This document shows positions 31,842 to 45,543 of a DNA stretch of 64,000 nt, piece by piece (position 1 is the stretch's first letter; each line of letters begins with the position of its first letter). The notes under the pieces are model-generated. The model was not told where the DNA came from, ran no database searches, and was given only the letters and a program-made list of their open reading frames with translations. The DNA lies in contig JAPDJY010000030.1 in the NCBI GenBank assembly GCA_029258835.1, positions 32,001-96,000 on the forward strand, written 5' to 3'. This DNA is from Thermoproteota archaeon (lineage in GTDB: Archaea; Asgardarchaeota; Jordiarchaeia; Jordiarchaeales; Freyrarchaeaceae). The translations under genes and the position numbers were made by a program.

Positions 31842-32183
31842 TTATGCGAAGGCGCCTTCTACTAGGATTGCTACAGCTGCACCGATTATCGCAATGATGC
31901 CGCCAAGGACTGCTAGGAGTGCCATGCCTAAAGTACCCATTGTCGCTGCTCCAAGGATCAACTCTATGATTCCTAAGATCAACACAATAGCAGTGCTTGC
32001 CTTAAGTAGCTTCTCTGCGGCCAACACTAGACCAAAGATTAGCACTATCAGGCTGACGATTGCAAGCACCCATCCCATTGCCCCTGCTCCTCCAGTTAAA
32101 GTCGCCTGTAACGTGCTTCCTAGGAAAGGCGCTATTAGCCCTAGTATACCCCCTATGAACCCAATTATGCCACCTATCTTCAT
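31842..32183 (-). CDS. Small Gly/Ala-rich four-TM membrane protein
   Basis: Four hydrophobic helices in 113 aa; RBS present. Confidence 0.7.
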   Translation of the reverse strand: MKIGGIIGFIGGILGLIAPFLGSTLQATLTGGAGAMGWVLAIVSLIVLIFGLVLAAEKLLKASTAIVLILGIIELILGAATMGTLGMALLAVLGGIIAIIGAAVAILVEGAFA

Positions 32184-42440: not shown

Positions 42441-42656
42441 GAGAAAACACCCTCAAAAACTCAGCACACACCCCTCAACACCAGCAACCTCCAGCCTAAT
42501 CATCCCATTCAACCAAAACATTCCATCAAAACACAATAAGCAGCCAAAGAAGACAACGAAAACCCAACCAAGAAACCGCCATGTTGGTAAGATTTTTAAA
42601 TGTTTATTCCAAATGGTGAACCTGAAGCTCAACCCTACCACATACCATGTGAGCGT

Positions 42657-42734
42657 AGCGGGGTGGGGTAGTCAGGAGATCCCGCGGGGCTCATAACCCC
42701 GAGATCGGTGGTTCAAATCCACCCCCCGCTACCA
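42657..42734 (+). tRNA. Initiator tRNA-Met(CAU), CCA encoded
   Basis: A1-U72, GGG/CCC anticodon stem around CTCATAA, GGTTCAAATCC, ACCA end. Confidence 0.97.
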
Positions 42735-42758
42735 ACAGCTCCTTCTCCCGCAAAAAGA

Positions 42759-42812
42759 GGGCTGTCGGTGGGTTCGAACCCGCAGCCAGCGGGTTACAAC
42801 TGCGGGGTTCAC
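42759..42812. pseudogene. Degenerate tRNA-like fragment
   Basis: Minus strand TTGTAA-CCCGC-TGGCT-GCGGG-TTCGAA-CCC resembles an anticodon-variable-T-arm segment; no D arm or acceptor stem. Confidence 0.35.
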
Positions 42813-43206
42813 GCTTGGTAGGTTTTTATGGGTGGATGTGGTTTTGGTCTGTCAGGTGTTTCCCCGTCATCGAAGCATAAGCCTCTGATGGGGCTTTCGG
42901 GGTAACCCCGGAGCCACGCGTCCGAAGACTCCACCCATAAGCCACCCCGTGGCCAAACCAGCACCCCAAACACTCACCGAGTATTTAACTGCTTCGCAAG
43001 GCGCATCACGCATCCGTTGCTCCACCGCTAAGTTACGCCGGCATTTTAACGTTTTAATGTTTCAGCTACACTGTCCTCCGCCATGACGACTAATTTCAGC
43101 AGCCATAACAGTATTTGTATTATTGCGTCCCAGACTGGCCTGTTACCTCTCCTTTTCGCCCCGCCCTCCAACCTTAGTGTGTCTCAAGGGCTTTAAGGAG
43201 CTGCCA

Positions 43207-43396
43207 AGGGCTGCCCGCCAACTCTTTTCACGGCTTCTAGGATGCGGAAGAATTGGTAAAATTAGTGAGAACGGTGGTAGCGGGGGGTGGATTTGAACCA
43301 CCGATCCACCCATCCCAACAAACGATTACACACAAATCTTACCAACCCTCCACGTCCTAGAAGCCGCGAAAAAGGTTGGTAAGACGTGGCAGCCCT
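43207..43396. repeat. Imperfect inverted repeats of about 55-60 bp (43207-43263 / 43334-43396) flanking the att-like core
   Basis: ccaactcttttcacggcttctaggatgcggaagaattggtaaaatt versus reverse complement ccaacctttttcgcggcttctaggacgtggagggttggtaagattt; shared agggctgcc outside. Confidence 0.8.
43275..43306 (-). repeat. Perfect 32-bp inverted copy of tRNA-iMet 3' end (att-core-like)
   Basis: Reverse complement GATCGGTGGTTCAAATCCACCCCCCGCTACCA is identical to 42703-42734. Confidence 0.95.
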
Positions 43397-43472
43397 CCCT
43401 CTGCAAGCGGCTCCGAGGCTCCTGCTACAGCCCCTGAGGAGCCCTGAGGCTCCGAGCAGGGCTTCCCGGCGG

Positions 43473-43991
43473 TCAGCGTTTCCTCCCCTTGCAGCCCGTG
43501 GATGCGGCTGCCTCCCGGCTGCTGCCTGCAGGAGCAGCGTCCGCGGACGCCGCAGGGCCAGCCAGCCCCCCCTCCCTGACCAGCTCAACCAGCTCCCCCA
43601 ACCTCCTATCCAAACGCTCCAAAACCTCCAGACGCTCCAGGGCCTCCAGCTTCCGGTCCATGCTGTCCAGCTTCTTCAGCTGTTTTAGTTGCTTCAGCTG
43701 TTTGTCCATTTTTTCTAGCTGCTGGGTCATTCTGGCCGTGTGTCTTGCTGTGGCTACTTCTGCTCCTGCCTCTATTGCTCCTGCTGCGGCGTCCACTCCT
43801 GCCGCCGCGGCCCCCAGGGGGCTGGGGGACGCTGCACCCTTCAGGAGGCCTCCGGCAGCCCTGAGCAGGCCCGCCGCAGCCCCCAGGACACCCGGCCTGC
43901 CAAGAAGCCCACCCCTGCCCTTACCCCTCTTCCTGCTTTCAGCCTTCCTCCTGCCTCCGGGCTTCTTCCTGGATTTTGGCAACGTGGACAC
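43473..43991 (-). CDS. Orphan GC-rich protein (basic N-terminus, Gly/Ala region, coiled coil), probably from a mobile element
   Basis: 172-aa ORF with atypical GC content and heptad LEKMDKQLKQL...LERL. Confidence 0.55.
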   Translation of the reverse strand: MSTLPKSRKKPGGRRKAESRKRGKGRGGLLGRPGVLGAAAGLLRAAGGLLKGAASPSPLGAAAAGVDAAAGAIEAGAEVATARHTARMTQQLEKMDKQLKQLKQLKKLDSMDRKLEALERLEVLERLDRRLGELVELVREGGLAGPAASADAAPAGSSREAAASTGCKGRKR

Positions 43992-44298
43992 CGTTTAACA
44001 CTTTGCAGCCGCGGAATATAACTGTACTGTTTGTTGTGGTTGAGGTTGGTGGTTTAAACTATTTGTGTTACTGATGGCTTTTTCTTATCTTCTTAGGGGC
44101 TGGGATCAGATTGAGGGTTATGGTGTTAAACTGGGTTGTTTCTTTGCTTGTATTAGGGGTGTTGTGTTTGGCTTTCTGGGTGTGGGGGTCGTCATTGTTA
44201 ATGTTTTTGTTTGGGTTTGAGAGGTTTTGTTGGTTTTCATCTGTTTGTTTGTCGTTGTGTTTCTCCGTTGTTGTCGTTAAGTTTATTTTTTTGTCTTT

Positions 44299-45543
44299 TT
44301 GATTGGTTGTGGGGGTGTCTGCTTGTTTAGGGAGCGTATTGGTTATTATGGTATTCTCTTGTTTGGTCTTGTTAGTCTTTTTGCGGATGTTGTGTATGAA
44401 GGTGCGAGGAGTGTTATTCCTGACTTTTTGAAGGTTCTTGGTGCTTCGGCTACGGTTGTGGGTTTTGTTATTGGTTTGGGGGAGTTTGTCGGGTATGTTG
44501 TTAGGCTTCCTAGTGGCTTCTTGGCTGATGCGAGTGGTAAGTACTGGCGTTTCATTTTCTTCGGGTATTGCTTGACGCTTTTTTCTGTTCCGGCTCTTGC
44601 CTTGGTTGGACGCTGGGAGCTTGCCGCGTTGCTAATCTTTGTTGAGCGGTTTGGAAAAGCCTTTAGAACTCCCTCTAGGGATGCGGCTCTGTCGATTGTT
44701 ACGCGTGATGTTGGTGCTGGTAAAGCCTTTGGCCTCCATGAGCTTATGGATCAGGTGGGGGCGGTTGCAGGGCCCTTAATTGTCTCTATGGCGCTGGCTT
44801 TCTCGCTTGGTAGCATGCACTTTTCCTTCTCCGTTCTTATACTTCCTGCTCTAGCTTCTCTGGCCTTCCTCTACCTGGCGTATGTTAAGCTTCGCGGTTA
44901 CGTTGGTGGTGAGCCACGGCCGAGAAAAGCTAGGATATCGGTTAAGAATCTTGATAGGCGATTTTGGATTTATAATGTTGCAGCCGTGTTGAGCGTAACC
45001 GGGTTCCTGCACTATAGCCTTATAGCCTACAGGATGGCTGGCTTAACTCCTTCATGGGTCATACCCGTTGTCTTCGCTGCGGCTATGGGTGTGGATGCGG
45101 TGGCTGCCGTGGCGCTGGGCTTCGCCTACGACCGCTTCGGATTAAAGGTTTTCTGGTTCATTCTGGCCGTCTCGGCGCTACCTGCCATTTTAGCGATTAA
45201 AGCAGATGTTCTTCTCCTGTCGGTTGCCATCCTGCTTTTCGGCGTTGGTATGGGGGCTCAGGAGTCTGTTTATAGGTCTGCGGTAGCCGACCTGTCTCCG
45301 CTGGAAATGCGTGGGACAGCCTATGGCTTCTTTAACACGTTCTATGGTTTAGCTTGGCTGATAGGCGGCTTCACCATGGGGTTCATGTACGACTTGAGTG
45401 CGGCTGTCGGCCCCCTCCTCGTAGCCGCATTTTCAATCGCATGCCAGTTGTCGGCAGCCATCCTGTTGGCACTCCTCCTAGTATCTCTAAGGAGAAGCGG
45501 CGTAGAGGAGGGTGTGAAGAGCAGTGCCTCCCCCTCAGCCTAA
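44299..45543 (+). CDS. MFS transporter
   Basis: VSLFADVVYEGARS, G.LAD..G, ERFGKA.R.P.RD, about 12 TM, RGTAYG. Confidence 0.93.
   Translation: MIGCGGVCLFRERIGYYGILLFGLVSLFADVVYEGARSVIPDFLKVLGASATVVGFVIGLGEFVGYVVRLPSGFLADASGKYWRFIFFGYCLTLFSVPALALVGRWELAALLIFVERFGKAFRTPSRDAALSIVTRDVGAGKAFGLHELMDQVGAVAGPLIVSMALAFSLGSMHFSFSVLILPALASLAFLYLAYVKLRGYVGGEPRPRKARISVKNLDRRFWIYNVAAVLSVTGFLHYSLIAYRMAGLTPSWVIPVVFAAAMGVDAVAAVALGFAYDRFGLKVFWFILAVSALPAILAIKADVLLLSVAILLFGVGMGAQESVYRSAVADLSPLEMRGTAYGFFNTFYGLAWLIGGFTMGFMYDLSAAVGPLLVAAFSIACQLSAAILLALLLVSLRRSGVEEGVKSSASPSA

Follow-up and report, generated by a model that had tools for sequence, protein, structure and literature searches.

An inverted, attP-like site facing an initiator tRNA gene in a Jordiarchaeia genome: a probable relic of a tRNA-targeting mobile element

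In an uncultured archaeon (Thermoproteota archaeon; Asgardarchaeota, Jordiarchaeia in GTDB; GenBank assembly GCA_029258835.1), the 3' end of the initiator tRNA gene, tRNA-iMet, is repeated a short distance downstream in inverted orientation, between two arms that resemble those of an attachment site. The window analysed here is the whole stretch of 64,000 nucleotides from position 32,001 to 96,000 of contig JAPDJY010000030.1, and coordinates are those of the window unless another sequence is named. The metagenome-assembled genome (MAG; G000) comprises 2.72 Mb in 91 contigs, is 94.7% complete and has a mean GC content of 48.8%; its reads occur in marine and hydrothermal sediment runs, and genes for Topo VI A and B together with tRNAs that contain introns confirm that the organism is an archaeon. 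An initial annotation, made from the sequence alone, had proposed that the two tRNA ends bound a 540-bp invertible switch. The arms are built from a 47-49-bp bipartite palindrome, TCTTACCAAC-N27-29-GTTGGTAAGA, which is called unit U and consists of two convergent half-sites. The tRNA gene and the attachment-site-like features are as follows.

42583-42602, + strand: lone GTTGGTAAGA half-site abutting a TATA-like TTTTTAAAT, 55 nt upstream of tRNA-iMet; also in contig L164, displaced in contig L113.
42657-42734, + strand: tRNA-Met(CAT) gene with encoded CCA, the attB-like target (ARAGORN; Rfam tRNA, 62.5 bits); the initiator type is the call of the initial annotation.
42703-42734, + strand: core copy 1, the 3' 32 nt of tRNA-iMet (inverted-repeat search).
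42735-42759, + strand: trailer of tRNA-iMet, ACAGCTCCTTCT onward, resembling the trailers (A/G)TAGCTTTTTCT that follow two degraded relics.
43213-43261, no strand: left arm, a degenerate unit U' (GCCCGCCAAC-N29-ATTGGTAAAA), 14 nt past the CCA end of the inverted core (self-comparison).
43275-43306, - strand: core copy 2, a perfect inverted copy of the 3' 32 nt of tRNA-iMet (inverted-repeat search).
43337-43384, no strand: right arm, an intact unit U (TCTTACCAACC-N26-GGTTGGTAAGA); 30 nt separate it from the inverted core, on the core's 5' side (pattern search).

The two cores are complementary at 32 of 32 positions (100%), as the initial annotation had reported, and 540 nt lie between them. A scan of the MAG that allowed up to 3 mismatches found these two copies only. 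The core of the attachment-like site is identical to part of a tRNA gene, as in elements that target tRNA genes. The perfect identity is not evidence of selection, because the probability of zero changes at a strain divergence of 3.5% is about 0.5 by our own estimate. Inverted arms of about 57 nt stand on both sides of core copy 2. An inverted-repeat search detects the pair 43218-43248/43349-43379 within them, self-BLAST aligns 43218-43379 with its own reverse complement at 70% identity over 165 nt (E = 1e-10), and 43195-43400 is predicted to fold into a single long DNA hairpin of -48.3 kcal/mol, compared with -26 ± 3 kcal/mol for shuffled sequences (z = -7.5). The left arm is a degenerate inverted copy of the right arm with a spacer about 80% identical, and the right-arm spacer is also related to the unit spacers of contigs L082, L055 and L114. 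The earlier observation that inverted arms flank the copy on both sides, which gave it the look of an attP, is therefore supported by this repeat pair, self-BLAST and the hairpin.

Exact copies of GTTGGTAAGA occur at 42583 (+), 43337 (-) and 43375 (+) and nowhere else in the window, against an expectation of about 0.1 copies in its 64 kb. The MAG as a whole has 15 exact copies; two loci of contig C2 account for 9, and several of the others are P-loop codons. The earlier observation is confirmed and is not attributable to chance. The recurring motif noticed in the initial annotation is thus non-random and is part of the 47-49-bp palindromic unit. Its two degenerate copies fare differently: the one at 43253 is better described as the inner half-site of the degenerate left-arm unit, whereas the one at 42815 belongs to a 200-bp dispersed repeat with about 30 genome copies and is not specific to the locus.

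Read in the sense orientation of the core, the inverted copy has the layout U, 30 nt, core, 14 nt, U', which is of the attP type, and the tRNA gene with the native-type trailer behind it resembles an attB in layout. The attB-like and attP-like sites are inverted and 540 bp apart. A flip of 42735-43274 would leave the tRNA intact, as had been pointed out, and would also convert the two sites into 'tRNA, 14 nt, U'', the canonical attL as found in other contigs, and 'U, 30 nt, core, trailer', an attR.

Evidence on orientation comes from assembled contigs. The JGI metagenome contig L113 (6355 bp) carries the same locus at 96.5% identity, that is, 3.5% diverged, with both junctions in the reference orientation; its metagenome also yielded the Guaymas Basin contig B82_Guay16_scaffold_28128 (L104, identical to GenBank L037). 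A different JGI sample gave contig L164, which is 99.97% identical and crosses the left junction into a miniature inverted-repeat transposable element (MITE), again in the reference orientation. Of the sequencing runs, X2, X3 and X5 contain the strain type of the window and X1 that of L113. In run X1, a 6353-nt contig of depth 44 consists of 43003-43167, 110 replaced letters and 43280-44797, which fits the indels of L113 exactly. The reference orientation is thus seen in every junction-crossing assembly, namely the MAG, L113 (both junctions), L164 (left) and the X1 contig (right). An assembly artefact, which the initial annotation had named as one way in which its proposal could fail, is excluded because L113, L164 and the X1 contig reproduce the junctions independently. 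The other way it had named, a single fixed orientation with no cognate recombinase, is largely what is found across the two strains.

The left arm decays differently in the two strains. Its outer half-site reads TCTCACCAACC in L113 and has decayed to GCCCGCCAAC in the window, and in L113 22 nt are deleted (43258-43279), so that the left arm has lost its inner end, the inverted core its CCA end, and the 14-nt spacer between them is gone. Both strains have the same right-arm half-sites. L113 also lacks the MITE, whose site is empty, has a 20-nt insertion near 43170 and has a tRNA-iMet trailer that reads ATAGCTCTTTCT instead of ACAGCTCCTTCT. Left of about 42608, L113 has a 245-nt element 98% identical to G000:C15:55748-55992. 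Because this element occupies that side, the half-site at 42583 and the TATA-like stretch are displaced. The element itself (L113:6115-6355, 49 nt upstream of tRNA-iMet) is GC-rich and hairpin-rich, has a weak HgcC-like Rfam match (24 bits) and partial copies on C2, C29 and C3, and could be a small mobile element or an RNA gene. The family-level relatives G001-G004 have just the tRNA and, about 9 kb from it, a thiolase-like gene in common with the locus, and because their flanks are not conserved they give no ancestral state. Contigs retrieved via Topo VI-A were short, and none reached the locus. In one genome of the same family (L013, G004:C42), tRNA-iMet carries a 19-nt intron-like insert between GAGAT and CGGTGG in the T-arm region, 3 nt from the point that matches the start of the 32-bp core in the window. 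The position of this insert recalls proposals that the attP sites of elements carry introns into tRNA genes.

The interval 42735-43274 contains two features.

42760-43042, - strand: tRNA-like gene, split by the MITE in this strain; uninterrupted in L113:5839-5927 (Rfam tRNA, 32.6 bits; gathering score 29).
42804-43003, - strand: 200-bp MITE of a tnpB-only IS200/IS605-family element; multi-copy, with ends common to the tnpB element and an empty site in L113.

The tRNA-like gene has its own upstream TATA-like stretch and converges on tRNA-iMet, their 3' ends being about 25 nt apart; in L113 it has a 25-nt insert in the anticodon loop and two acceptor mismatches. No open reading frame (ORF) crosses either boundary of the interval, and no outward-facing promoter or gene end was found within it, the tRNA-like gene and the MITE making up its content. 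BLAST of the interval against the MAG gives about 24 full-length and 7 partial matches to the MITE at 81-93% identity. The partial matches are the ends of elements of about 1.42 kb that encode a 394-aa TnpB (Pfam OrfB_IS605, Cas12f1-like_TNB), and because the 200-bp repeat shares these ends it is assigned as a MITE. It has ends as in an autonomous tnpB element, many copies and an empty site in a relative, and the precise empty site in L113 sets its boundaries. It is thus an ordinary member of the MITEs of IS200/IS605 (tnpB-only, IS1341-like) elements and is unrelated to the attachment-like sites. Seven tnpB-bearing copies are present, several of them with broken frames; L049:497-1681 is a full-length example.

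Unit U was found in 107 JGI metagenome contigs by an exact-pattern scan. Among 96 units in 80 fetched loci, the spacer is 28 nt long in 42, 27 nt in 15 and 29 nt in 11; about 6 units of 28 nt would be expected if lengths were uniform. Phage_integrase is the commonest Pfam family among the 150 ORFs nearest to U (10/150), and ParB, PAPS reductase, DUF5906 primase and an HK97 gp10-like protein are also present. Local profile searches place an integrase at most 1.3 kb from U in 11 loci. These integrases are generic Xer-like enzymes that score far below the NCBIfam XerA cut-off and reach 28-52 bits against the integron model TIGR02249 (cut-off 265). The units occur at syntenic positions at a density of 1-3 per 6-14 kb contig. 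An integron reading of the genes flanked by U was rejected, since there is neither an IntI-type integrase nor a cassette array at this density.

In many contigs, two U units 410-460 bp apart bracket a small gene for a coiled-coil, zinc-ribbon protein. This family is present in 19 loci (for example L074:6002-6388, L080:640-1026 and L052:438-995), usually within about 1 kb of a tyrosine integrase. The protein, about 125 aa long, has a coiled coil and, at its C-terminus, the zinc ribbon CGKxCxGCPHGPY; the upstream U encodes its start codon and the residues EVGKK. It is a candidate integrase helper or U-binding protein. The half-sites of U would most likely serve as binding sites for a protein encoded by the element, either the arm-binding domain of the integrase or a small accessory protein.

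No unit U was found in 399 other genomes of the same phylum, which argues that U is borne by elements and is not a host motif. Scans of GTDB and IMG/VR gave two IMG/VR and six non-archaeal GTDB matches, about the level of chance; above it stand two archaeal contigs, and one of these is a duplicate of a contig from a Guaymas metagenome. Four places share the order 'tRNA 3' end, 14-40 nt, U', namely L082, L109, C2:141284 and the left arm in the window. In L082, an integrase gene is followed by tRNA-Thr(CGU), 24 nt and a unit U whose spacer is related to that of the window. A full-text search of the literature for the motif gave only primers and unrelated sequences, and U is possibly new, the one such item of the locus.

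A further copy of the tRNA end lies downstream of the palindrome.

44047-44098, + strand: degraded direct copy of the tRNA T-arm/acceptor end plus trailer GGCTTTTTCTTATCTTCTTAGGGG, an older attR-like scar; it matches the relic at G000:C2:141280-141336.

The portion of this relic that corresponds to the tRNA end, 44047-44075, was overlooked in the initial annotation. It is heavily degraded and is the sole direct core repeat at the locus, the well-preserved copy being the inverted one. A second, better preserved relic of tRNA-iMet, found by sensitive comparison, is located at G000:C2:141284-141313 and is followed by ATAGCTTTTTCTTATCTTCTAGAGGG. Unit U occurs three more times at C2:141349-143949, adjoining this relic, together with one lone half-site.

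As had been noted, no recombinase lies at the locus, and no cognate enzyme was found genome-wide either. Six-frame searches of the MAG detected one intact tyrosine recombinase (423 aa, contig C50) and one pseudogene on C44. C50 has a GC content of 58%, no U unit and no tRNA scar, and its enzyme is 24-31% identical to the U-associated integrases, with 31% for that of contig L093. PF00589 and PF16795 have no match on contig C2. In tblastn searches, neither the 11 U-associated integrases nor the zinc-ribbon family had a match at either U locus, where no gene or fragment of an integrase was detected, and the integrase queries matched C50 only. The core, the P-core junction and the core-P' junction were not found in viral contigs. 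The MAG also has 12 open frames of 190-225 aa with a Resolvase domain, which we take to be IS607-like serine recombinases. Serine recombinases were rejected as the agent because these 12 matches are unrelated to the locus: none lies there, and a truncated resolvase at C2:132017 is 9 kb from the second U locus. The Resolvase frames and the tnpB elements point to a heavy load of insertion sequences in the MAG.

The reading that we favour, with a probability of roughly two in three, is that the locus is an integration hotspot at tRNA-iMet with the decaying remains of at least one integrase-type archaeal mobile element, in which a stranded attP-like site faces a restored attB. A U-bearing element would have integrated normally into tRNA-iMet, and one inversion would then have reversed its attR end. 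Integrase-mediated exchange between attL and attR, now inverted relative to each other, would have flipped the interval instead of excising the element, so that attB and attP would be restored and the element trapped. The integrase and most of the cargo would subsequently have been lost. The site has drifted since: a TnpB-family MITE entered the interval and split the tRNA-like gene, the outer half-site of the left arm was lost in this strain, and the sister strain acquired the 22-nt deletion that reaches into the core. Because no cognate integrase is present in the genome, the interval is best regarded as fixed in one orientation and as regulating nothing; it could flip only if a related element supplied an integrase in trans. 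The single orientation and the missing cognate recombinase argue for a relic and not a switch, by the very standard that the initial annotation had set. The proposed 540-bp invertible switch is not supported, given one orientation, no cognate recombinase, a decaying left arm and nothing to regulate. Inverted repeats are the one feature of an invertible switch that the locus has; it has no dedicated recombinase and no regulated cargo, and a second orientation is not demonstrated.

Several observations weigh against the stranded-relic reading. The two arms share their whole spacer (about 80%), whereas the spacers of paired units elsewhere are mostly unrelated, and the palindrome may for this reason be a secondary inverted duplication. 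Scans of viral contigs found no free or integrated element with an exact P-core-P'. The MAG is 94.7% complete, and an integrase could sit in unassembled DNA. The core copy is still 32/32 and the right-arm unit is perfectly conserved in both strains, for which function instead of youth is conceivable, a point that is weak either way. Finally, a contig of run X5 (depth 6.9) connects 42735 with 43307 in opposite strand orientation, which is the junction expected of a flip; its shorter side has just 31 letters, the word size of the assembler, at the 32-bp repeat. Because this tRNA end is common to many organisms, words of the repeat reach depths in the thousands in run X5. The joint is indistinguishable from a word-size artefact of the assembly graph, and rare flipping may occur.

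An active, if rare, invertible segment would require a tyrosine integrase acting in trans, from C50 or from an unbinned or superinfecting element, that flips 42735-43274 between the attB/attP and attL/attR states. The perfect cores, the attP-like geometry of the arms and the canonical 'tRNA, 14 nt, U' junction that the flipped state shares with other contigs all suit such a segment, and archaeal integrases are known to catalyse inversion between inverted sites (PMC8371274). The C50 integrase has a distant relative, at 31% identity, in the U-associated integrase of L093, but contig C50 has neither a U unit nor a tRNA scar; likewise, the X5 joint looks like a flip, but its 31-letter side is no longer than an assembler word at a repeat common to many organisms. 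All junction-crossing assemblies of the two strains show one orientation, the left arm is degenerate here and deleted in L113, and the interval holds nothing whose expression would change, so that active inversion is unlikely. Unlikely, too, is the wider proposition that U is the signature site of an undescribed family of tRNA-integrating archaeal elements of marine and hydrothermal sediments, for which the inverted attB × attP pair of the window would still flip or capture elements whenever a cognate integrase enters, as a conditional inversion site driven by superinfection.

The palindrome could instead be a secondary inverted duplication and then would be no attP; template switching or the repair of a hairpin, for example, could have copied the unit across the core of an attR-type scar (U, 30 nt, core). 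The shared 28-nt spacer, about 80% identical over its entire length where those of paired units elsewhere are usually unrelated, speaks for such a duplication. The whole 160 bp folds into a single hairpin, and the P-type arrangement, with a unit upstream of the core, is seen at this locus alone. However, the symmetry is centred at about 43298 and not on the palindrome of the T-arm, and the stretches of 30 and 14 nt that separate the core from its two units are unlike in sequence as well as in length. The orientation of the left arm also fits the recurrent 'core, spacer, U' and the L082 spacer, and L082 itself has two units with related spacers. We therefore consider a secondary duplication unlikely. 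A role for the hairpin as a structured RNA or DNA element that works for the host (a terminator, a cruciform connected with replication or an RNA resembling a tRNA minihelix, for example), with a tRNA-derived tip that has only incidentally to do with mobile elements, is very improbable. The strong predicted fold (z = -7.5), the good conservation of its right half between strains and a switch of strand composition around the locus could be taken as signs of such an element, but the indels in the left half of L113 break the hairpin, no Rfam family rises above noise (MIR844 and HgcC, the matches beyond tRNAs, were discarded at noise level) and U is absent from all 399 related genomes searched. 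The flanks of mirrored composition have no sequence similarity; a replication origin or mirror repeat was rejected, the comparison of the CA-rich left with the GT-rich right flank scoring 27 against a shuffled mean of 29.

An orphan gene lies between the palindrome and the 44047 relic.

43473-43991, - strand: orphan, GC-rich gene (64%) for a 172-aa protein whose N-terminus is basic, whose middle is rich in Ala and Gly and which has a coiled coil.

Its 64%-GC patch contrasts with the genome average of 48.8%. Relative to L113, the frame survives a 7-codon repeat indel in the coiled coil, with 17 synonymous and 9 non-synonymous codon differences. Because the frame is kept and synonymous changes are in excess, the ORF is considered a real gene, under purifying selection between strains. 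It has no Pfam match, and a homologue search gave none at E<=0.001. The gene is probably cargo of a mobile element. Other genes are present around the second U locus (G000:C2:141284-143950, equal to L027:7284-9950), which itself has an HTH_17 excisionase-type mini-ORF (L027:8527-8694), an HTH_7 mini-ORF and an uncharacterised 250-aa gene; metagenome contig L071 represents the same locus at 99.6% protein identity. Adjoining it is an 8-kb island of 56-60% GC (C2:132500-140500) with the truncated resolvase at its left edge and genes for a nucleoside hydrolase, a phosphoribosyltransferase, a PIN protein and a nucleotidyltransferase. A viral origin of this island (132.5-140.5 kb) was rejected, as its genes are housekeeping-like apart from PIN and nucleotidyltransferase and nothing in it is recognisably viral. 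A 35%-GC island at C2:147000-155000 carries RAMP and Cas10-like genes of a type III CRISPR-Cas module.

The known systems closest in outline place the locus among integration scars. Like the bacterial switches Hin/Gin, FimB/FimE and the Bacteroides invertons, it has short inverted repeats that bracket a segment of a few hundred bp. Bacterial invertible switches have a promoter or alternative gene ends inside the segment, usually an adjoining invertase, and both orientations coexist. None of these, whether promoter, gene ends, adjoining invertase or coexisting orientations, was found at this locus. Most probably, the locus is the tRNA-gene integration scar of an archaeal element with a tyrosine integrase. 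As in the scars of SSV-, pNOB8- and Thermococcales TKV/pTN3-type elements (PMC8371274), the core equals the 3' part of a tRNA gene, a hotspot is recognisable by several decayed copies, orphan cargo of foreign GC content is left behind, and relatives with the same arm motif adjoin tyrosine integrases. Unlike those scars, the best copy is inverted and keeps both arms, which makes it attP-like instead of a direct attR repeat; the locus has neither an integrase nor a split int(N)/int(C) remnant, and its arms form the bipartite palindrome of 47-49 bp.

Large inversions between oppositely integrated elements have been described in Thermococcales, with TKV2/TKV3 of T. kodakarensis and Int-pTN3 in T. 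nautili (cited in PMC8371274). They share with the present locus inverted, element-derived sequences on one chromosome and inversion in place of excision. In contrast, those inversions span hundreds of kilobases and were directly observed, while the segment here is 540 bp and its second orientation is not demonstrated; Int-pTN3 needed at least 104 bp (PMC8371274), and the repeat here is 32 bp. As in lambda-type heterobivalent attP sites, repeated motifs of 10-11 nt stand on both sides of the core at a distance of tens of bp. Int-SNJ2 has small coiled-coil helpers, SNJ2 Orf2/Orf3 (PMC8371274), and in the U-bearing contigs a gene for a small coiled-coil protein is similarly located next to the integrase, between two units. 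The U half-sites differ from both the lambda-type attP and the archaeal helper systems in that they always form convergent pairs 27-29 nt apart, and in that U units also flank the small zinc-ribbon gene and overlap its start codon.

If the locus were a switch, it would be a rare programmed inversion in an uncultured archaeon; as a relic, its direct importance is small. It is nevertheless a clean natural record of how an element is trapped and decays, and the sister strain dates the steps. Unit U could serve as a handle to find and delimit the mobile elements of poorly known archaea.

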